From the IMG/VR virus record IMGVR_UViG_3300037067_012588: a stretch of DNA of 64,000 nucleotides; one strand, given 5' to 3'. This stretch comes from a virus. Its lineage: Duplodnaviria; Caudoviricetes. The position numbers were made by a program, and so were the translations under genes. Positions 22,002 through 62,182 of this stretch are shown here, one piece after another. Position 1 is the first letter of the stretch; each line of letters opens with the position of its first letter. The notes beneath the pieces were generated by a model. It did no database searches, was not told where the DNA came from, and saw nothing but the letters and a program-made list of their open reading frames with translations.

Positions 22002-22445
22002 TCAGATTCTCCCGAACTTGCGCTTCAAGATTTCCAATGCACGGTCAAGACTCGGGAAATGAGGATTCGGAATCTCTCCCCAAATGTCCACCCATTGCCA
22101 TCCTTCGCACTTATCAGGCTCAGTATTGACAGGCTCAACCTCTTCTGCACAACGAAAAACGACAAACGACGTAATGTAATGCTTCCCTGACTCTGGAAAC
22201 AACTCCGTCTCTGTCGTCAAAATTTCAGTGTCGTCAATGCTTGTATTACAAACATATTCAACATCAATACCTGTTTCCTCTTTCACCTCTCTTGCAGCCG
22301 CAACGCCAATCGTTTCCCACTTGTCAATGTGACCGCCTGGCATACCATACCATCCATCACCAACGCCAGTCCCAATCCTCTTGCCAAGGAGAAACTTGTT
22401 GCCATTCATGACGAACGCAGCAACACCAACACTGATGTCGCTCAT
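22002..22445 (-). CDS. Nudix hydrolase (NUDT15-like)
   Basis: PGGH...ET...AAAREVKEETG; EPDKCEGWQW. Confidence 0.9.
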   Translation of the reverse strand: MSDISVGVAAFVMNGNKFLLGKRIGTGVGDGWYGMPGGHIDKWETIGVAAAREVKEETGIDVEYVCNTSIDDTEILTTETELFPESGKHYITSFVVFRCAEEVEPVNTEPDKCEGWQWVDIWGEIPNPHFPSLDRALEILKRKFGRI

Positions 22446-22579
22446 GTGTTCACCAATTCACTTTCGACAATGATGCTGAGCTGACCACACGCCGCACCAG
22501 CAGCAATCTCAGCCTGTGTTGCAACCGCAACAGCAAAATCATACCCAGCCGCTTCCAATTGCTTTTTAATGTCTTCCAT
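22442..22579 (-). CDS. 45-aa peptide matching the C-terminal catalytic-Cys segment (AACGQL) of RlmN/Cfr (not in the ORF track)
   Basis: MEDIKKQLEAAGYDFAVAVATQAEIAAGAACGQLSIIVESELVNT; own AAGGAG RBS; stop overlaps the next ATG. Confidence 0.8.
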   Translation of the reverse strand: MEDIKKQLEAAGYDFAVAVATQAEIAAGAACGQLSIIVESELVNT

Positions 22580-22593
22580 GATACGTCTCCTTC

Positions 22594-23379
22594 TCAGACC
22601 AAATTGACTGCTTCAATAACACCCAAACCAAGACCATTTGCTTCCGACACATCGTTCGGATTGATGGGCGATAATTTGATGAAAAAATACTTTGGGTCGA
22701 AATACTTCTTCAACCTCTCGATATCAAAATCCTTTTCATCGACAAGGGTCAGATTCACCGTTGTCTTTAGATTGCTTTGCGTCCGAATCTGACCAAGCTC
22801 CTCAATACTCATTTTACCATCCATCGGAATCAATTCGTCACGCCTTTTTTCGTCCAAACTGTGCAACGAAACTTGAAGTGTGATATTGTCTTTGACCCAC
22901 GAGAAATCGGAACCCTTAATGCCGATTGTCGAAACATAATGATGCACACAACCAGGAAACAACTTGTCGATACGAGTGATTGCAAGACGGACATCCTCTA
23001 GGTTCAGAAAAGGCTCACCCATTCGGGTATAGTTTATCTTAAACTCCTTGGCGTCTTGAACTCGATACTCCGAGTTTTGCTTAATCACGAAAGCAACCTG
23101 CGAAATAATTTCGTTCGCAGTAAGATTGCGACACTTTGAAAGCGATCCAGTTGCGCAAAACTTGCATCCGACAGGACATCCGCTCATAGTCGACACGCCA
23201 ACCATAAACCTTTCCGACCTGCTTCCAAGATCAACATCTTTCATTTTGTTAGCTCTACCTACGCAGAACTTGGTATAATACGGCAAAAAAGTATCCGTCA
23301 CCTCAATCGGAAAGCCATCATTTGTCTTGATAGCGTATACCGTTCCGTTTTTGAATGTTTTGCTTCGAACGACTTGCAT
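22594..23379 (-). CDS. RlmN/Cfr-like radical SAM enzyme, C-terminally truncated
   Basis: VSTMSGCPVGCKFCATG, RNLTANEI, RMGEPFLN, STIG, LQVSLHS...RDELIP. Confidence 0.85.
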   Translation of the reverse strand: MQVVRSKTFKNGTVYAIKTNDGFPIEVTDTFLPYYTKFCVGRANKMKDVDLGSRSERFMVGVSTMSGCPVGCKFCATGSLSKCRNLTANEIISQVAFVIKQNSEYRVQDAKEFKINYTRMGEPFLNLEDVRLAITRIDKLFPGCVHHYVSTIGIKGSDFSWVKDNITLQVSLHSLDEKRRDELIPMDGKMSIEELGQIRTQSNLKTTVNLTLVDEKDFDIERLKKYFDPKYFFIKLSPINPNDVSEANGLGLGVIEAVNLV

Positions 23380-23381
23380 CT

Positions 23382-23858
23382 TTACGCTCCATGATTCCTG
23401 TTTGTAACGAAGTCGATATATTTCCGACTTATGACAAAGTCGATGACAGTGCGAACAAGGACATCGTAAACGGGAGGATTGACATCTTCCATATCAAACC
23501 CAACCATGTCATACCAGCCCCACCCCTCACACTTGTTCGGCTCCATGTTCTTTGGCTCATCATCTCCCTGATAGTGAGCGAAAAGATAGATGGTTGCATA
23601 TTGAAGATTCTCAACAGGAAAAAACTCATCCCGTGCCGTCAGAATGACAGCGGACTCAACATCAAGCCCTGTCTCTTCCTTGACCTCACGGATAGCACAA
23701 TCAACCAGCGTCTCACCCTTCTCAAGGTGTCCACCCGGAAGCGAATACAAACCAGCCCCATGCGAACCCTTGCGCTTGCCGAGCAAGAAACGACGGCGAT
23801 TCTTGTTAAACACAAATACGTCGACCCCAACCATCGGCATGTCGGTTCTCTTTTTCAT
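23382..23858 (-). CDS. Nudix hydrolase (paralog of 22002-22445)
   Basis: LPGGHLEKGET...REVKEETG; EPNKCEGWGW. Confidence 0.9.
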   Translation of the reverse strand: MKKRTDMPMVGVDVFVFNKNRRRFLLGKRKGSHGAGLYSLPGGHLEKGETLVDCAIREVKEETGLDVESAVILTARDEFFPVENLQYATIYLFAHYQGDDEPKNMEPNKCEGWGWYDMVGFDMEDVNPPVYDVLVRTVIDFVISRKYIDFVTNRNHGA

Positions 23859-50260: not shown

Positions 50261-50944
50261 TTATTTCCTCAACCTCACAAACGGATGGAGCGGACGAACC
50301 GACTCCATAATCTCTTCAAGGTCTTCATCAGAATACTGAAACGTTCCAGCCTTTTCAGCGGAAAGCAAAGGAATATCAGCGATATACTGCTGCAATATCC
50401 AAGACCCATCTCCATCCAACTGTTTGGCCATCTCAACAATGTTTTCCTTCGAGATAGTTGCTGGACAAAGCGTTGTTCTGTATTCTCGCTCAATACCGCT
50501 TCGCTTGACAATATCAAACGTCCTCGGAATAGACTTAGCATCCAAGCCAAACGCACCAACTGAATCAAGTTGCGAGTGAAGCGTCTTGTAGTCTACACAG
50601 ATGCAATCGAGAAGGCTATTGTTAAGCAATGAAAGAACAACATCTGGTCTTGTCCCATTGGTAGACAGTTTGATGTGATGTCCGAAGTTTCTCAAAACCC
50701 TTATGAAATCTTCCAGCCCATCCTGAAGTGTTGCCTCGCCACCACTCAAAACAACACCATTAACTCCAGACAGTTTTCCAATCGCCGCAACAACACTCAA
50801 GGAATCCAACCGCTCCTCTTTCTCAAGTCCAGAGTTGTGGCAATATGGACACAGCAAATTACACCCGCCAAAAAACACAATGGATGAAATGTGCCCCGGC
50901 CACTCATTCAATGAGTTTGGAATGAACCCACGAATGTCAATCAT
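50261..50944 (-). CDS. nrdG: anaerobic ribonucleotide reductase activating enzyme
   Basis: FFGGCNLLCPYCHN, LSGGEAT, TNG, EYRTT. Confidence 0.88.
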   Translation of the reverse strand: MIDIRGFIPNSLNEWPGHISSIVFFGGCNLLCPYCHNSGLEKEERLDSLSVVAAIGKLSGVNGVVLSGGEATLQDGLEDFIRVLRNFGHHIKLSTNGTRPDVVLSLLNNSLLDCICVDYKTLHSQLDSVGAFGLDAKSIPRTFDIVKRSGIEREYRTTLCPATISKENIVEMAKQLDGDGSWILQQYIADIPLLSAEKAGTFQYSDEDLEEIMESVRPLHPFVRLRK

Positions 50945-53861: not shown

Positions 53862-55190
53862 TCAGTTTTCTAAAGGCTTGAAAAAAGGACTGGCTATGCC
53901 AGGACTCATCACTGGAACAGTTATCTGAGTCTCTTTGAACACTTCGTCAATCATTTTCGTATCGCCTTTGTAAAACACCAAAATGTTTTGATGCGACTTT
54001 CCAAGACGCCTATATGTTCCAAACTGGCGACGAATACGCATCGGCAACGAACCACCTGCCGTCACAAGCACTGACTCATTATACAGGCGAGCGCCGTATT
54101 CCGAAAAAGCATCTATCGTTTCAGTAACGAGATTCCTATAAAACCCTGAATCATCTCGAACATCTCCAACAACAAAACATGCAAACCTGTTTTCCTTCAA
54201 CCTATCCAAACCCTTCCTGATTACCTCACGATAGGCATTTTTAAAGGAATCCCACCCCATGTTTGTCACATCTTCCTCAAGCGTACTGTAAATCTCCAAG
54301 TCGAAATATGGAGGACATGTGAAGAAGAAATCTGCATCAACATCCTTGGCAATAATATCGAGATCAACACTGTCCCCAATAACCCACTTCGGTTTTGGAT
54401 TACATTCCAATTTATCACCCTGACAAATGTTTGTGGTAATCTGCTCAGGTCGGATATCAATTCCAAAATAACCCCGATTGAGAGCACAGGCAACAATACC
54501 ACGAACAGAGCTCCCACAGAATGGGTCAAGAACAAGACCACCTTCTGGACAATATAGTCTATAAAGCGTCTCACAAAGAACAGGATCAAAAGAACTTCCG
54601 ACCTTTCCTCCACGGATGTTGACATCTTTGTCTTTTGATGTTGAACCCATTCCAAATCCGCCGTCAACGCCGCTCGAAATCCACGCATCCTTTCGACGCT
54701 TCCACTCTGGAAGTCTCGCATCAAACAAAGACGAACCATGATATATTGCTGGCTCCTCAAGAACGCTTTTCTCAGATTTCCCTCGCAAAACTGACTGCTC
54801 AACAACCTGTTGAAGATCATCAAACAAAAGCATATTCGTCAAATCGCTATCAACAGCACGAACATGTTCCATCAAATCGATAACCTCTTCAGTCCAAGCT
54901 CCTTCAATTTTTGGATTATTCAACGCAACATTGAGAGTCTTCTCCATCGAGTCATCAAGGTCAACCTCAATGACATCAAGCTCTTTCTTTCCAGCCGCTT
55001 GCATGACTTTTAGTCGTTGATGTCCTCCAACGACATTCCCAGTTCTCTTATTCCAAATGATAGGTTCAACTAATCCAAATCGAGAAATAGAAGCCTCAAG
55101 ACCAGCAAGGGCTCGCTCAGATATTTTCCTCGGATTATAACCTGCAGGATTCAACGCCTCAATCGGAACCCGAACCATCTTGACAAACAT
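53862..55190 (-). CDS. ParB-N domain plus DNA amino-methyltransferase (motif I before motif IV)
   Basis: YNPR...VGGHQR; VLDPFCGSSVRG; FTCPPY. Confidence 0.85.
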   Translation of the reverse strand: MFVKMVRVPIEALNPAGYNPRKISERALAGLEASISRFGLVEPIIWNKRTGNVVGGHQRLKVMQAAGKKELDVIEVDLDDSMEKTLNVALNNPKIEGAWTEEVIDLMEHVRAVDSDLTNMLLFDDLQQVVEQSVLRGKSEKSVLEEPAIYHGSSLFDARLPEWKRRKDAWISSGVDGGFGMGSTSKDKDVNIRGGKVGSSFDPVLCETLYRLYCPEGGLVLDPFCGSSVRGIVACALNRGYFGIDIRPEQITTNICQGDKLECNPKPKWVIGDSVDLDIIAKDVDADFFFTCPPYFDLEIYSTLEEDVTNMGWDSFKNAYREVIRKGLDRLKENRFACFVVGDVRDDSGFYRNLVTETIDAFSEYGARLYNESVLVTAGGSLPMRIRRQFGTYRRLGKSHQNILVFYKGDTKMIDEVFKETQITVPVMSPGIASPFFKPLEN

Positions 55191-55200
55191 AACGCCCTCA

Positions 55201-57210
55201 CTATTCCAATTCAACCAACTCCAAAGTCTCTGTCGGGTCAGCAACAAGTGTCTGCTCCAAACCAGAAAGGTCCATCGCACCAAACTCTGACTTTATTGTT
55301 TTCGGTTCGCCCTTGAAAAAAACCAAAAGACTCTTGTGAACACAAATTCCTTTTCTTCCAAGTTTTCCCTTTATCCATGGCTTATCTTGCAAGAAAATAG
55401 CCTCATTGTAAAGCCTCATACCTTGACTCTCAAATGCCTTGATTATCTTTCCAGAAAGACAAGACGAGAAGCCATCCTCATTCTCTACATCCTCAAAAAG
55501 AACACAAGCCATTCTCCCATCTTTGAGGTTTTTTACAGCAGCTTCTATCTTTCCGTAAATCTCTTCCGTGAATACGTTTACCTTCGGGACAACCATGACA
55601 ACCATATCTGACGCTTCCTCTGGAATCTCTGTCTTCCATAGAGGGGTCTGCGTTTCTTTTTCATTACGAACAACAACTTCTTCATTTCGGAGCCCAACAA
55701 CCCAAAGCAAATCACCGTAATCAAGATATGGCAAACACTTCGCCTCATACGACGAATCTAAAAGAATGTCCCCAATCATATTGCACTCTGCTTTGTCAGC
55801 AGAACATTTTACCAACGTCACCATCTCACGCCATCCAGCAGGCGCATACTGGTTTAACCTCTCATCAGGGTCAACCCCAACAACAACTCCCAAAACAGGA
55901 ATTTCTCTCCCGCTGTCTTTTAACCCATGAAGAATACCAGCCAAAGACATACCAGAACCAACAGGCACAACAATACGACTAACATCAGGAATATTTATTA
56001 CTTGCTCTGCCATCTGTCGTATAAATACATCACTCTCAAGATTAGCAGGAATTTCTGTCCATCCTCTTGCCGCAGCATCCTCTTTGGCTTTCGCAATAGC
56101 ATCAGTAATGAAATCTGTCTGGTGTTGAATGATTTCTGCCCCATGGTTCTTTGCATCCAAAAGCTCAGACGTCATATCACCCTTGTTGGTGTGAACACGA
56201 CAAGGAACTCCCAGACGACCAGCAATACGTGCGACAATGCCACTCAGGGGCGATGTAAGCCCCACAGCAGCGACGACACCACAAGAACCACTGCAAAGCT
56301 CTACACAGGCTCTAGCCTTCGCTCCACGGGCATTTGCTACGCAATACAAGTCATCTCGCTTCACAATGAACTCATCAACCATCTGAATCGGAGTAATGTC
56401 TTCTGTGTTGTCACTCAAATACCGTTTTGTCTTGACAGAAGCAAACACATCGATATTTCTCTTCGACTGTTTCTCGCTTGTCGTTATTCCAATATATTTT
56501 CCACCAGAAATTCCCGTCGCTATACCCCAAGACGGATCATCACCATACAAGTCAAGAACCGTTCCACCAGAAGGACAAAACCACTCAAGCAACAAAGAAG
56601 GAAGAACTGGATCATTGTCTCCACAAATACCATTCCGAACCATTTCTGCACGACGTTCTCTCCAATATGGCTTCCTCTGGTCAAGAGTTGTAAGTGGAGG
56701 AACTGAAAGTAATTCGTTTTCCGTGTCGGGATGAGTCTCTTCTTCTTCATTTTCTTCTGGCGGCGTATCTCCATCTCCACCTTCTTCACTCGCATCTTTC
56801 TTTTTCTCTTCTCCTCCGAGGGATTTCAAGAGATCATCAATACGAACAGCCTGAAACATCTCCGGCAATTCATCACCAATCTCCTGCAAAAGACTTCGAG
56901 TCGAATCATCCCAATCACCCCTTACGGCAGGACTATTCAACGTTATATTGAGAGCAATCTCATGAGTCTCGTCCATATCAACCTCAACAACATCTGTTTC
57001 AACAACACCCATCTCATTAAGAACTTTACATCTCTGATGCCCACCAACAACATTTCCAGTCCTCTTATTCCATACAATAGGCTCAACGAAACCGAACTTC
57101 GTAATTGACTCACGAAGTCCTGCAAAAGAGTTTGCATCGATTGTTCTTGGATTATAGTCGGAAGGCAAAAGGTCTTTGACAAACTTCCTAACCAAAACAA
57201 TATCTTTCAT
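55201..57210 (-). CDS. ParB-N plus degenerate methyltransferase with an inserted PLP fold-II enzyme domain
   Basis: YNPR..GGHQR; VLDLYGDD; IVKRDD...GAKAR; VPVGSGMSLAG; LDSSYEAK; RLYNEAI...LVFFKG matching the paralog. Confidence 0.8.
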   Translation of the reverse strand: MKDIVLVRKFVKDLLPSDYNPRTIDANSFAGLRESITKFGFVEPIVWNKRTGNVVGGHQRCKVLNEMGVVETDVVEVDMDETHEIALNITLNSPAVRGDWDDSTRSLLQEIGDELPEMFQAVRIDDLLKSLGGEEKKKDASEEGGDGDTPPEENEEEETHPDTENELLSVPPLTTLDQRKPYWRERRAEMVRNGICGDNDPVLPSLLLEWFCPSGGTVLDLYGDDPSWGIATGISGGKYIGITTSEKQSKRNIDVFASVKTKRYLSDNTEDITPIQMVDEFIVKRDDLYCVANARGAKARACVELCSGSCGVVAAVGLTSPLSGIVARIAGRLGVPCRVHTNKGDMTSELLDAKNHGAEIIQHQTDFITDAIAKAKEDAAARGWTEIPANLESDVFIRQMAEQVINIPDVSRIVVPVGSGMSLAGILHGLKDSGREIPVLGVVVGVDPDERLNQYAPAGWREMVTLVKCSADKAECNMIGDILLDSSYEAKCLPYLDYGDLLWVVGLRNEEVVVRNEKETQTPLWKTEIPEEASDMVVMVVPKVNVFTEEIYGKIEAAVKNLKDGRMACVLFEDVENEDGFSSCLSGKIIKAFESQGMRLYNEAIFLQDKPWIKGKLGRKGICVHKSLLVFFKGEPKTIKSEFGAMDLSGLEQTLVADPTETLELVELE

Positions 57211-57302
57211 TCCGTTGCTCCAACAATCGGAGTCAACTGCTGCCAGTCGCACCCCTCACCATGAACATACTCAGCCCAACGTTTTCGAATCACATCACAA
57301 TA
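57197..57302. repeat. direct repeat A, copy 1 (about 106 bp; copy 2 at 58531-58636)
   Basis: Near-identical DNA encoding YCDVIRKRWAEYVHGEGCDWQQLTPI.GATE plus the next start MKDIV. Confidence 0.9.
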
Positions 57303-58544
57303 CTTCGTACTCAACTCCATTCCTCTGCCAAGTCGACCAGTAATCTCTGCGGCCATAATCGTTGTTCCCGACCCACAAAAACTATCAAATACAACATCAC
57401 CCTCATTTGAACTATTCTTCATTTGCTGTGTGAATAATTCTACGGGTTTTGTTGTAGGGTGATCTGCACTTCTTGCTGGTTTTTTGTAATCAAAAACGGT
57501 GGTCATTTTTCGTCCACCATTCCAACAATGTGCAGCCCCTTCTTTCCAACCATAAAGACAAGGATCATATTCAGGTTCATATCCTTTCTTCGACTTGTCT
57601 TGCTCTGGAACTTGTGACTCATCAGCAACCTTGTCTCCGTTCCATGTCACTTCTCCACCAAGCTTATGACCATATAAGCAAGGCTCATGTTTCTGTTGAT
57701 AATTCGACCAACCCAGAACCATAGTGTTTTTATTCCAAATTAATACCTGTCTGTTGTCCCAACCACAAGACTTCATAGCTAAAAAGAAATTCAAAGTCTC
57801 TGAATCACTATACCAAATATAATACACAGCACCAGGCTTCATGACACTGTCCGCAGCTTTATATGCCGAAGTAAGGAACTGCAAAAAATCATCATCGCTC
57901 ATTTTATCATTGGCAATCTTCAGGGCATCCTTTGTTTTTCCGACATAGGCAACATTGTACGGAGGGTCGGTCAACCAAAGACTAACGAGTTCTCCATTCA
58001 TAAGCTTTTTGACATCATCTTCCTTTGTCGATGAACCACACATTAACCTGTGATCCCCTAAACGATAAACTTCGCCCTCTTTGCTCTCTGGAGTCTTTGG
58101 AACTACTGGTATTGCGTCTGGATCAGTATGTCCCTTCTTGTCCTCACCAGGAAACATCTTCCCCAAATCATTCAACATAACCGACTTGTAAAGTTCTGGA
58201 AGCTCTCCTTCTACTCTCTCAAGTAAGTCGCCAATATTATCTGTCCAGTCTCCTTGAATAGCTGGGTTGTTTAACGTGACATTCAAAGCAATCTCTTCAT
58301 TCTCAGGCATGTCAACAACAACAACCGTTGTCTCTTCGACACCCTGCGCTGTTAAGACCTTGAACCTCTGATGCCCACCAACAATGTTTCCTGTCTGTTT
58401 GTTCCAGACAATAGGCTCAACTAAACCGAACCTCGTAATCGAAGAGGTCAAACCTGCAAGAGCTTCCTTTGATATAGACCTCGGGTTATAAGAAGCTGGC
58501 GTGATATCCGCCAGCTTCTTTGTTTCCCATACAATATCTTTCAT
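57207..58544 (-). CDS. ParB-N plus N6/N4 DNA methyltransferase (beta-class order)
   Basis: HRLMCG, TDPPYNV, HPTTKPV, DSFCGSGTT. Confidence 0.92.
   Translation of the reverse strand: MKDIVWETKKLADITPASYNPRSISKEALAGLTSSITRFGLVEPIVWNKQTGNIVGGHQRFKVLTAQGVEETTVVVVDMPENEEIALNVTLNNPAIQGDWTDNIGDLLERVEGELPELYKSVMLNDLGKMFPGEDKKGHTDPDAIPVVPKTPESKEGEVYRLGDHRLMCGSSTKEDDVKKLMNGELVSLWLTDPPYNVAYVGKTKDALKIANDKMSDDDFLQFLTSAYKAADSVMKPGAVYYIWYSDSETLNFFLAMKSCGWDNRQVLIWNKNTMVLGWSNYQQKHEPCLYGHKLGGEVTWNGDKVADESQVPEQDKSKKGYEPEYDPCLYGWKEGAAHCWNGGRKMTTVFDYKKPARSADHPTTKPVELFTQQMKNSSNEGDVVFDSFCGSGTTIMAAEITGRLGRGMELSTKYCDVIRKRWAEYVHGEGCDWQQLTPIVGATE
58399..58529. repeat. direct repeat B, copy 1 (about 131 bp; copy 2 at 59559-59689)
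   Basis: Near-identical DNA encoding WETKKLADITPASYNPR...EPIVWNK. Confidence 0.9.
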
Positions 58545-59719
58545 TCTGTTGCTCCAATAATCGGGGTCAACTGCTGCCAGTCGCACCCCTCACCATGAAC
58601 ATATTCAGCCCAACGTTTTCGAATCACATCGCAATAGGATGTATTTAGCTCTATAGCACAACATTTTCTTTCAAGTTTTTCACAAGCTATCAATGTAGAA
58701 CCAGAACCGCAAAATGGTTCGAATACCAAACCACTTGTCCAGCCAACAACTTCTTCCATTAGCGATACTGGTTTCTCTGTAGGATGGAGATTGTTTCCAC
58801 TCCTATCATGTAGCACCAAGTCCGAAGGACGCTTACCCGTCCAAAAATGATTCTTACCCAAATAGAACAGACATACTTCAGTCTGCCTTCCATGTTCATG
58901 CTCCAAGTCACCCATAGACCAATTATTTTTTGCCCATGTAATGAGACTTTTAGGCATTGGCACATCTACCAAGTTATTCCAACGACACCACAGATATTTG
59001 GAATGTTCAGCTTCCAATCCTGTTGCCCAAACCAAAAGCTTGGCGTCTTCATCCCCTGCAATCTTTTCATGTTTCGCTGTTCCCTTACGATGTCCACTCT
59101 GGAACGCCATCCCATAAGGAGGGTCTGATACAACTGACCCTATAACTTGCCCGTCCAAAACTCTCTTCATATTTTCAGGACTTGAGCAATCACCACACAA
59201 AAGACGATGATCACCCAATTGGTACATTTCACCAACCTGACTTATCACGTCTTTTTGTGGCTCAGGTATGTCATCCTCGTTTTTCTTAGATTTTCTTGCG
59301 CTCGTATGCCCAAGAGCCTTCTCAAGGTCATCCAGTTTTACAGAATTGAAAAGGTCTGGAAGTTCCTCATTAATCATTTTTAGAAGATCACCAGTTCCTT
59401 CTGTCCAATCTCCCTGAATAGCTGGATTGTTTAACGTGATGTTGAGGGCAATTTCTTCGTTCTCAGGCATGTCAATTACGACAACCGTTGTCTCATCAAT
59501 ACCTTGTTCTGACAACACCTTGAATCGTTGATGTCCACCGACGATATTACCAGTTCTCTTGTTCCAGACAATAGGCTCAACTAAGCCAAACCTCGTAATC
59601 GAAGAGGTCAAACCTGCAAGGGCTTCCTTTGATATAGACCTTGGGTTATAAGAAGCTGGCGTGATATCTGCCAGCTTCTTTGTTTCCCACACCAAATCAC
59701 CAATAGTTTTTTTCGACAC
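58541..59719 (-). CDS. ParB-N plus N6/N4 DNA methyltransferase (beta-class order)
   Basis: HRLLCGD, SDPPYG, HPTEKPV, EPFCGSGST. Confidence 0.92.
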   Translation of the reverse strand: MSKKTIGDLVWETKKLADITPASYNPRSISKEALAGLTSSITRFGLVEPIVWNKRTGNIVGGHQRFKVLSEQGIDETTVVVIDMPENEEIALNITLNNPAIQGDWTEGTGDLLKMINEELPDLFNSVKLDDLEKALGHTSARKSKKNEDDIPEPQKDVISQVGEMYQLGDHRLLCGDCSSPENMKRVLDGQVIGSVVSDPPYGMAFQSGHRKGTAKHEKIAGDEDAKLLVWATGLEAEHSKYLWCRWNNLVDVPMPKSLITWAKNNWSMGDLEHEHGRQTEVCLFYLGKNHFWTGKRPSDLVLHDRSGNNLHPTEKPVSLMEEVVGWTSGLVFEPFCGSGSTLIACEKLERKCCAIELNTSYCDVIRKRWAEYVHGEGCDWQQLTPIIGATE

Positions 59720-59971: not shown

Positions 59972-62182
59972 TCAAATTGTATACTGTCCACTATGACGAT
60001 CCTGACCTTCACGCTTCTTGCTGACGTTCCAATTGTCTACCTTCGAGTAATACCCAACGACACGGGTAATACGGTCAACATCTTTGTTGCCACACTTCGG
60101 ACAAGTCTCTTTCAACCCAGGAAACCGTCCGCACTTTTGGCAAACCGTAAACTCTGGAGATACAACCAATTGAGCGCAATTCGTTTCGTGAAAGACTTTC
60201 TCAAGCAAAGTGAAAAGCGATGAAGGCTCAGGCATATTCTCTCCACAAAACATATGAACGATAGCCCCCGATTCAATCATGTTGTGGAATTCAGACTGCT
60301 TGAAGACACGCTCGACAAAAGGAATGTCGGCATCTGGACGGAAGTGAATCGAATTGGTATAGTAGACATTGTCATCTTCAAGCGAACCGTTGACAAACTT
60401 CTTAGCAATCTCATATTTACCAACATCACAACGAGCGAGACGCCGAGCCGTACTCTCAGCAGGACTCTCTTCCAATGTGAACTTCAACCCAGTTTCCTTC
60501 TTGAACTTACCAAGAACAGCAAGCATATACGCAACAACATCCTTGCCCTTCTCAAACGCACCATCAGAATCGTGCATCTCCTGACCGACCATGAACTTCA
60601 AGGCTTCATTCAGCCCAATCATGCCAATGATATAGGTACAAGACGGAAGATGAACATACGGCTTTCCATCGAAATATGGAGCGCCACAGAGGTCATACAT
60701 CGGGTCGCCAGGATTCTGGCTGATTGACTCGATGAACTTCTTCTTCTGAAGATGAGCCTTCTTCGCCAGCTCCATTGCTGTCATCACTTCCTTCTCAAAC
60801 GCCTTCCAGTCACCATTGCTGCGATAGGCACACTGAGGCAGATTGATGGTCACGTTCATGAACCCACAGAAACGCAAACGCTCTGGCTCTTCGAGAATCT
60901 TCGGGTCCTCAATCTTCGTGCGCAACCTGCAACACGCCGCAACGGTAATACTATCGTGGTCAAAAATGAAATACGGAGAACCATTTTCACCAGCAATCTC
61001 GCAAGCCTGCATCACGATGTCTTTGTTCTCGGTAAAGTCCTTCTCAGAGAGGTGGAAATCCATCTTCGGAAAAGCAAACGGAGCTCCGTTCGAATCTCCA
61101 GCCCGCCAAACCTCCATCATCGACTTCAAGAACTTCTTCGATACCTCTTCATAATCAGCATAAGTCTTCTTGACAACAACCAAGCCATTACGACCTTCCT
61201 TAGCGGCAAGCTCGATATCTTCCCACGTATCCATATCGTCAAAGAACTTGTTGAAGTTTTCTCTGGTAATCTCAACATCGCCTTTGACAATCTTCGTCAG
61301 CATCTTCCCACCAGGACCAACAGCCTGAACCTTCTTAAGCCAATCAGGAATACTGATGTGGACATTGAAATCCGTGAAGAGAACCTGCCCACCACGACTG
61401 AACGCAGATTGGCTGAGCGAGAAAATCAGATACTGGGCAACCTGTTTCATCTCTTGAGCCGACATCTTCTCGACATACGGAGCAAAATAGATGTTCACAA
61501 AATCAAGCCCAAGAGCACCAGCATAATACGTCGCAGCACTGCAAAGGAATGTATTGATATGCCCGACAAGAACCTGAGCGTGTTTGGCCGGAGAAGAACG
61601 AACATCAAATTTCAGGAACTGCCCCAACCCGTGCATTGCAATAGCACGAACAGAATGAGCACTGCAATAAACTTTCGTGATACACCCCATGTCATGGAGG
61701 TGGATAAGACCTTCAAGGTGAGCACGCTCAACATCACCAGCAAAGACTTTCTTCAATGCGTACTTCTTAAACGTATTCTCGGCAACAATGAGAGCAATAG
61801 CTTCTGGATTGTTTCTTGAGATATTGCTGTTCTCTGAGGACTTCTCACGAATAAGATTGTCAAGGTCGTACAGTGACATACCGACCGAAACCTGACCAGA
61901 CAGCTTTGCACCATTGAATCCGTTTTTCAGCAAGTGGTAATTGACAATCATCTTGAGCGTCTGAATGTCAATTTCTGTTTTTCCCATCGCAACAAGCTCT
62001 TCGTAAACCGTATTCGCAATCTTTTCAGCATCGCCCTTCGTCAACTTACACTCTTCACGAAGAGCAGCAACAACCTTTGCGGAATCCCACTCATGGATAT
62101 CATAATTGGACAACGACTTTACCTGCAAATGAACGTCAGTCGAATTATCGTGACGCTCTTTCAACACCTTTACCTTTGTCAT
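59972..62182 (-). CDS. nrdD: class III anaerobic ribonucleoside-triphosphate reductase with ATP cone
   Basis: IHLHD, YCSAH, CCRL, ESPAES, YYTNS, zinc ribbon, glycyl-radical RVVGY. Confidence 0.95.
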   Translation of the reverse strand: MTKVKVLKERHDNSTDVHLQVKSLSNYDIHEWDSAKVVAALREECKLTKGDAEKIANTVYEELVAMGKTEIDIQTLKMIVNYHLLKNGFNGAKLSGQVSVGMSLYDLDNLIREKSSENSNISRNNPEAIALIVAENTFKKYALKKVFAGDVERAHLEGLIHLHDMGCITKVYCSAHSVRAIAMHGLGQFLKFDVRSSPAKHAQVLVGHINTFLCSAATYYAGALGLDFVNIYFAPYVEKMSAQEMKQVAQYLIFSLSQSAFSRGGQVLFTDFNVHISIPDWLKKVQAVGPGGKMLTKIVKGDVEITRENFNKFFDDMDTWEDIELAAKEGRNGLVVVKKTYADYEEVSKKFLKSMMEVWRAGDSNGAPFAFPKMDFHLSEKDFTENKDIVMQACEIAGENGSPYFIFDHDSITVAACCRLRTKIEDPKILEEPERLRFCGFMNVTINLPQCAYRSNGDWKAFEKEVMTAMELAKKAHLQKKKFIESISQNPGDPMYDLCGAPYFDGKPYVHLPSCTYIIGMIGLNEALKFMVGQEMHDSDGAFEKGKDVVAYMLAVLGKFKKETGLKFTLEESPAESTARRLARCDVGKYEIAKKFVNGSLEDDNVYYTNSIHFRPDADIPFVERVFKQSEFHNMIESGAIVHMFCGENMPEPSSLFTLLEKVFHETNCAQLVVSPEFTVCQKCGRFPGLKETCPKCGNKDVDRITRVVGYYSKVDNWNVSKKREGQDRHSGQYTI

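Follow-up and report, generated by a model that had tools for sequence, protein, structure and literature searches.

RlmN and Cfr are the textbook enzymes for methylation through a protein-bound methyl-cysteine radical, and both of the cysteines involved are held to be essential. RlmN is a dual-specificity C2-methyltransferase of 23S rRNA A2503 and tRNA A37 (TIGR00048; PDB 3RF9/3RFA, 6FZ6), and Cfr is the C8-methyltransferase of 23S rRNA A2503 (TIGR04432; PDB 9P0P). In these enzymes, the carrier cysteine is methylated by one S-adenosylmethionine (SAM), and a radical from a second SAM activates the methyl-cysteine. The activated carrier adds to C2 or C8 of adenine, and the second cysteine takes the ring proton, which leads to release. 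When the second cysteine is missing, as in C118A/S RlmN and C105A/S Cfr, the crosslink persists. Here, we analyzed a locus in a 64,000-nucleotide stretch of a Caudoviricetes virus (IMG/VR record IMGVR_UViG_3300037067_012588; the whole stretch is referred to as the window). The locus encodes an RlmN/Cfr-type radical SAM protein (the core) and, in a separate small open reading frame (ORF), a peptide corresponding to the RlmN segment that contains the carrier cysteine. Comparison with related loci revealed that this split is an old, selected design.

The core stop codon is followed by a 14-nt gap and then by the 45-aa ORF in a different frame. The features of the pair are as follows:

22594..23379, minus strand: core subunit, 261 aa, RlmN/Cfr-type radical SAM domain
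22587..22593, minus strand: Shine-Dalgarno-like GAAGGAG within the 14-nt gap, 7 nt before the peptide ATG, as read from the sequence
22442..22579, minus strand: carrier peptide, 45 aa, acidic, homologous to the RlmN C-terminus

Profile and fold comparisons confirmed that the core is an RlmN/Cfr-type radical SAM domain. It contains GCPVGCKFCATG with Cys68, Cys72 and Cys75 (23178-23155), MGEP and SLH, and terminates at ...VNLV, followed by TGA at 22596-22594. The initial annotation, which described a 261-aa ORF with RlmN-type motifs ending before the C-terminal motif, was thus correct on this point. The core family aligned with columns 100-317 of the canonical RlmN profile with a probability of 100% (hhalign). 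The alignment begins at column 100 of 374, and the HhH2 N-terminal domain is absent from the core. The scores were below the family thresholds for RlmN (83 bits against TIGR00048, cut-off 290) and for the Cfr models (56-59 bits, cut-offs 468-550), and also below that of Pfam Radical_SAM (27.1 bits, cut-off 29.5). In the AlphaFold2 model (predicted local distance difference test score 88.5; last 5 residues disordered), the core is built from the beta' extension and a partial TIM barrel that stops after the sixth strand, with an insertion of ~19 residues (residues ~34-56) ahead of the strand containing Gly61. Foldseek ranked RlmN structures first (6FZ6/4PL1/3RF9/5HR7, TMq 0.64-0.73), followed by Cfr 9P0P (TMq 0.58); other radical SAM enzymes reached at most 0.50.

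Gly61 (23199-23197) occupies the position of RlmN Cys118 in phmmer alignments with 6FZ6 and 4PL1 and also in hhalign, as had been proposed from the sequence. This position is invariant in the family, with N, H, D or A in rare relatives. The cluster cysteines Cys68, Cys72 and Cys75 are invariant and are the only conserved cysteines of the core. Cys39, Cys83 and Cys154 of the window core, considered as substitutes, were not conserved in the family alignment, and no new conserved Asp, Glu or His stood out as a substitute base in the core family. We also considered whether the core is less basic than the RNA-binding RlmN; the trend seen in a small set disappeared in diverse representatives (median isoelectric point 8.35 versus 8.1-8.7), and a difference in charge persisted only between the peptide and the RlmN tail.

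The peptide consists of an N-terminal helix, a beta7-like strand (GYDFAVAVAT) and a loop in which the single Cys31 (22489-22487) lies in AACGQL. The peptide family matched columns 326-369 of the 374 columns of the canonical RlmN profile (hhalign, probability 93%, E 2.7e-7); this segment comprises the last helix, the strand and the AACGQL loop of RlmN. Ten positions (L8, G12, A18, A20, T21, E24, A30, C31, G32 and Q33) were invariant in 21 diverse peptides, and the family has one conserved cysteine per peptide. Because the median dN/dS over the 30-codon peptide core was 0.14, with dS near saturation, the small ORF appears to be translated and constrained. The isoelectric point of the peptide is 4.3, compared to 9.6 for the equivalent RlmN segment. 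These observations, together with the GAAGGAG element and the ATGA (22445-22442) shared by the peptide TGA and the ATG of the next gene, support the earlier description of a separate AACGQL ORF in another frame with its own ribosome binding site and coupling to the downstream gene. The window contains a single peptide gene of this kind. When the core, the peptide, 4Fe-4S and SAM were predicted as a complex, the score was 0.82, and one unrelated 55-aa control scored 0.76.

To place the pair among its relatives, as the initial annotation had suggested, two samples were used. The phage set comprised 80 IMG/VR loci and 5 cultured phages (85 in total), and a second sample, drawn independently from genome bins of bacteria and archaea, provided 46 Gly-type cores and 48 split loci. 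The core family is large: clustering at 90% identity gave 2,245 clusters with E below 0.001, and lengths among the best 120 were 255-287 aa. As a query alone, the 45-aa peptide gave no matches in phage records or PDB (tblastn, phmmer); separate cysteine peptides were located across the phage loci by motif scans and a profile. A separate small ORF with the cysteine was present in 85/85 phage loci, and a separate peptide accompanied 45/46 Gly-type cores of the genome-bin sample, the lone exception lying at a contig end. The split is therefore conserved far beyond chance, co-occurs with the small ORF and with the loss of Cys118, and is not a peculiarity of one copy among intact single-ORF homologs. 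It persists in distant members with 37-38% identity. The cultured carriers, whose hosts differ widely, are Kehishuvirus tikkala (Bacteroides), Moorella phage MTATph1, Vibrio phage D479, Pectobacterium phage Arno162 and Yersinia phage P778; Arno162 and P778 encode the peptide one or two genes downstream of the core. AACGQL was replaced by AACSQL in two IMG/VR loci and by GSACGQL in one.

The two ORFs of the window are adjacent and in different frames, as would be expected if an RlmN gene had decayed or shifted frame, if the sequence contained an error, or if a programmed frameshift restored a single chain. The comparative data exclude these explanations for practical purposes. The cores of all 85 phage loci end at the same ...N-L-V terminus, so that the stop position is identical in every relative, and the peptide has its own start codon and ribosome binding site. 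The gap between core and peptide ranges from 2 nt to 5.6 kb across the phage loci, with relative frames 0, 1 and 2; other genes may intervene, and in 2 genome-bin loci the peptide gene is upstream of the core. Both ORFs are also under purifying selection. The peptide gene has often been left uncalled in annotations, and the family usually carries the label 'hypothetical', 'radical SAM protein' or, incorrectly, 23S rRNA methyltransferase.

Some members of the family depart from the common form. In one 601-aa protein (P0127), the core of the split family is interrupted just after the cluster motif by an intein that includes a LAGLIDADG endonuclease (Hint, Intein_splicing, LAGLIDADG_3). A Gly-type clade with 'KIGVS' (P0181, P0190) showed no cysteine peptide on its short contigs, at least one of which is bacterial-looking. 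In the 216-kb phage 3300031813_000003 (L097:5437-6000), the core and the peptide are 5.6 kb apart. This interval contains two accessory radical SAM genes, a methyltransferase, an NT5C-type nucleotidase, a Tpt1/KptA RNA 2'-phosphotransferase and DUF1937, and the gene for NAMPT is just downstream.

The initial annotation had regarded the loss of Cys118 and the split as two changes that fit together. We compared the state of this position across 88 complete cores, taken from a search of representatives at 50% identity. The cysteine tail was present in cis in 32/37 cores with Cys at the 118 position, in 0/22 with Gly, and in 21/29 with neither (I, V, M, N, T or A at the site). The tree contained only two changes of Cys118 state, and a single grouping of the Cys118 rows was not rejected (p-AU 0.60). 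A correlated-evolution test of Cys118 loss against the split had only 2 independent pairs and no power (p 0.5). The association between Cys118 and the split is one clade-level transition without statistical weight as co-evolution, and the notion of a single joint adaptation was not upheld, given the 21 of 29 non-Cys, non-Gly cores that keep the tail in cis. Because single-chain relatives without Cys118 keep the cysteine tail, the loss of Cys118 is independent of the split, though Gly in particular accompanies the split.

Spacing within the tail pointed in the same direction. The distance from the G[FY] with which the strand begins to the cysteine was exactly 19 residues in 20/20 of the single-chain Cys118-less tails measured and in 79/79 split peptides, compared to 17-18 in Cys118-bearing enzymes, and the tails of the T class (P0173, P0213) resemble the phage peptides. 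These sequence features place the split family within a wider 'long-loop' class of RlmN-like proteins that lack Cys118, many members of which are single-chain.

By analogy with RlmN, we tentatively favor a two-subunit RlmN-like enzyme in which the peptide is a reusable cysteine carrier and resolution is independent of a second cysteine, with a probability of roughly 0.45. The 261-aa core would bind a [4Fe-4S] cluster and SAM, and the 45-aa peptide would dock on it as barrel strand beta7, supplying the helix, the strand and the cysteine loop in trans. Cys31 would then be S-methylated by the first SAM, and the 5'-deoxyadenosyl radical of a second SAM would remove a hydrogen from the S-methyl group, as in RlmN. 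The resulting Cys-S-CH2 radical may attack an sp2 carbon in an acceptor of the adenine type, again as in RlmN, and the adduct would be resolved without a second cysteine to give a methylated product and a reusable peptide. Resolution of this kind is favored because the core belongs to the Cys118-less long-loop class with its many single-chain members.

Several observations weigh against this two-subunit methylase. The second cysteine of RlmN and Cfr is experimentally indispensable for resolution of the crosslink, and no conserved acid or base replacing Cys118 was identified in the core family, where the site is an invariant Gly. Binding of the peptide to the core is itself inferred from sequence homology. 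No re-fused single-chain form was found in any locus, among thousands of sequences; given that a gap of 10-20 nt would be easily closed, this absence suggests that the peptide is kept free by selection, and a plain two-subunit methylase leaves that unaccounted for. In Vibrio phage D479 (OZ195776.1; L004:3300-3581), one ORF carries two tandem full modules of strand plus AACGQM. The genomic surroundings described below add two further points: the association with Nudix and NAD genes is absent in most crAss-like lineages, and the Nudix partners would suit RNA 5' ends no less than free nucleotides.

The same observations bear on a peptide that is consumed, the reading put forward in the initial annotation. 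Radical addition would halt at the thioether, leaving an S-CH2 bridge between the peptide and C2 or C8 of an adenine, whether in RNA, in DNA or in a nucleotide; the core would reload and the peptides would be spent. This very crosslink builds up in C118A/S RlmN and C105A/S Cfr (5HR7, 4PL1), and the invariant Gly at the site, with no other conserved cysteine in the core or beyond the carrier in the peptide, is consistent with it. Gly and the missing cis tail coincide in 22/22 representatives, and a trans peptide accompanies 45/46 Gly-type cores. The absence of re-fusion, the tandem duplication in D479 and a partial duplication in another locus also argue in this direction. In the latter locus (L091:1196-1405; core P0164, 37% identical), the partner has 69 aa, its strand is partly duplicated, and ITCGKL replaces AACGQL. 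The peptide gene can lie kilobases away, so that it could be expressed on its own. We nevertheless consider a consumable peptide unlikely. The argument is weakened because Cys118 loss occurs without the split: the single-chain relatives would be whole-enzyme suicides, and the coupling of Cys118 to the split is one evolutionary transition. The helix and the strand are the most conserved parts, which suggests a stable barrel subunit rather than a fast-exchanging reagent; stoichiometric use would be costly for an abundant target, and there is no experimental sign of such adducts.

Accessory genes near some of the pairs raised the question of whether the peptide is instead a product. A second radical SAM gene and a class I methyltransferase of ~148 aa lie between or beside the core and the peptide in 19/48 genome-bin loci and in 3/20 IMG/VR core clusters. 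The second radical SAM gene encodes ~245-260 aa with a weak MoaA/viperin-like N-terminus and forms a tight operon with the pair (L044:3789-5004, L068:3799-4964, L097:1283-3171). A third radical SAM gene (~290-300 aa, CxxxCxxCEF) lies beside the pair in several jumbo-phage lineages (L055:4234-5100, L097:3796-4695, L074:4487-5335, L022:1769-2614) and gave weak peptide-maturase, MoaA and viperin matches. In one protein (P0142), the core is fused to a second radical SAM domain. When single sequences of the accessory radical SAM genes were used for scans, all matches were near-identical copies.

A radical SAM gene adjacent to a small peptide gene is the classic layout of pathways for ribosomally synthesized and post-translationally modified peptides (RiPPs). 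The core, often together with the second radical SAM enzyme and the small methyltransferase, might modify the peptide in such a RiPP-like or cofactor-like pathway. The tight operon in 19 of the 48 loci, the third radical SAM type elsewhere, and the weak matches of both accessory enzymes to peptide-maturase and viperin/MoaA models fit this explanation. It is nonetheless quite improbable, because the peptide is a homologue of the C-terminal structural element and catalytic loop of the enzyme itself and is highly conserved with no variable core. A precursor-style arrangement of conserved leader and variable core was not observed; the cysteine region is the most conserved part of the peptide. Pfam and NCBIfam listed no SPASM, twitch or RiPP recognition element (RRE) domain for the core, and its sole peptide-maturase match was marginal (TIGR04148, 14 bits, cut-off 300). 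The accessory radical SAM and methyltransferase genes of the other lineages, moreover, are missing from the window. The odds left over from the two-subunit methylase, the consumable peptide and the modified peptide fall to something not considered here.

In the window, the pair is flanked by two Nudix genes, and the minus-strand order Nudix, core, peptide, Nudix forms one tightly packed unit. The flanking genes are listed as context only:

23382..23858, minus strand: upstream Nudix gene, 158 aa, PF00293, 77.8 bits
22002..22445, minus strand: downstream Nudix gene, 147 aa, PF00293, 71 bits

The upstream Nudix gene stops 2 nt before the core ATG. The two Nudix proteins are paralogues with 48% identity to each other, and the core and peptide module looks inserted in a tandem Nudix duplication (22002-22445, 23382-23858). 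The flanking Nudix genes are possibly functional partners of the pair. Adjoining them are genes for NAMPT, NAD kinase and a Nudix-containing protein of the NatV/NadM type, whose transferase half matched only the PHROG 'cytidyltransferase'. The placement of the pair between two Nudix genes within a block of NAD (nicotinamide adenine dinucleotide) genes, as first annotated, therefore holds for this window (PF00293 in both, NAMPT, NAD kinase) and is not universal in the family.

No neighbouring gene was universal near the pair, so the pair is a self-contained module. A homologue of the Nudix protein of the window was encoded within 4 kb in 8/48 split loci and in 0/31 other RlmN-like loci (Fisher p 0.02, relatedness not controlled). 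The Nudix-linked split loci include lineages that are 35-45% identical and vary in gene order. The gene for NAMPT lies within 3 kb in 6/20 IMG/VR core clusters, in changing order, and is present in 3/5 cultured phage genomes with the pair, being absent from those of Kehishuvirus and the Moorella phage. Non-independence of lineages was controlled only in part in these comparisons.

Fusions and neighbours were also observed among relatives outside the split family. Cys118-less single-chain enzymes with a C-terminal isochorismatase-family hydrolase occur at several loci (P0185, P0236, P0239; L112:8001-9587), at least 2 of them from Elusimicrobiota, and an unfused Cys118-less member (P0277) adjoins isochorismatase and FAD oxidoreductase genes. 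The isochorismatase fusions were considered as a specific link to NAD and rejected: the domains match generic cysteine hydrolases better than nicotinamidase. Among Cys118-bearing RlmN-like proteins, two that lack the N-terminal domain are fused to a MutT-like Nudix domain (P0188) and to a dGTP triphosphohydrolase HD domain (P0193), and a third is fused to a beta-lactamase-like domain (P0222). On a contig binned as Methanobacterium (L178:5704-7197), the gene for NAMPT is ~0.9 kb from a Cys118-bearing short RlmN-like gene.

The odds given to possible acceptors were drawn from the neighbourhood and from the domain fusions of relatives. At somewhat less than even odds, we favor a free adenine nucleotide or the 5' end of an RNA as the acceptor, because the RNA-binding domain is missing, Nudix genes are neighbours, and relatives are fused to Nudix and isochorismatase domains. 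The HhH2 domain of Cfr has been described as crucial for rRNA binding, and the absence of this domain, together with the acidic peptide, is a hint, though no proof, against A2503 or A37. A tRNA or rRNA acceptor is accordingly the lesser candidate but still a credible one, and DNA is improbable.

The 344,634-bp contig encodes NrdD and fusions of ParB and DNA methyltransferase, and the window looks like a section of a jumbo phage infecting an anaerobe. Three consecutive, partly overlapping ORFs at 53862-58586 have ParB-like N-terminal and DNA methyltransferase domains (phrog_498, phrog_620). The only other radical SAM gene of the window (50261-50944) carries the GGCNLLCPYCHN motif and probably encodes the activase of the anaerobic ribonucleotide reductase NrdD (59972-62182), 9 kb away.

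Phages of gut, marine and soil environments thus harbor a very large natural family in which the carrier cysteine would be on a free peptide and a second cysteine is missing. Either the reaction is finished in a way not yet described, or peptide-nucleobase adducts are made deliberately; both would be new enzymology. If the peptide were indeed consumed, the family would represent a natural radical-SAM 'peptidylation' and phages would make a new covalent conjugate of peptide and nucleobase. The Nudix and NAD-salvage surroundings raise the possibility that phages modify adenine nucleotides or RNA 5' ends, with a bearing on counter-defence. Cultured phage-host pairs (K. tikkala on Bacteroides, Arno162, P778, D479) make the question directly testable.

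Full-text literature searches found no account of an RlmN-like system that is split or encoded by a phage. The nearest PHROGs family is of unknown function, and neither the core nor the peptide had a match in PADLOC. Among described enzymes, RlmN is the best sequence and fold match of the phage core. The two systems have in common the CxxxCxxC cluster motif, the beta' extension, the partial TIM barrel, MGEP, SLH and the AACGQL loop. They differ in that the Cys355 segment is a separate polypeptide in the phage pair, Cys118 is replaced by Gly, and the HhH2 domain is absent. The phage pair also has the insertion of ~19 residues before the Gly61 strand, a cysteine loop two residues longer, and an acidic rather than basic strand. 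Cfr has the same fold and belongs to the same two-SAM methyl-cysteine mechanism class; it differs from the phage pair in the same four respects as RlmN (HhH2 domain, insertion, Gly at the Cys118 position, separate cysteine segment) and is the weaker match, with 56 bits where the cut-off is 550 and a TMq of 0.58.

The C118A/S mutants of RlmN and the C105A/S mutants of Cfr (PDB 4PL1, 5HR6/5HR7) are without the resolving cysteine, as is the natural phage family. However, these mutants are engineered dead-end single chains, whereas the phage family is natural, conserved and selected, with the putative carrier on a free peptide. The single-chain Cys118-less clades (P0209 with IGSNCGQ; P0173/P0213 with AACGQAL; P0185/P0236/P0239) resemble the phage pair in lacking the N-terminal domain, in their acidic strand and in the spacing of 19. 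They differ in having the cysteine tail in cis and I, V, M, N, T or A at the 118 position, and they are from bacterial-looking contigs. SuiB/SuiA, SkfB and PqqE/PqqA share with the phage pair the arrangement of a radical SAM enzyme beside a small peptide gene. Their peptides are substrates with a leader and a core, bound through an RRE or SPASM domain, whereas the phage peptide corresponds to a segment of the enzyme fold that has become detached, and the phage core matched those maturases with TMq of only 0.41-0.50.

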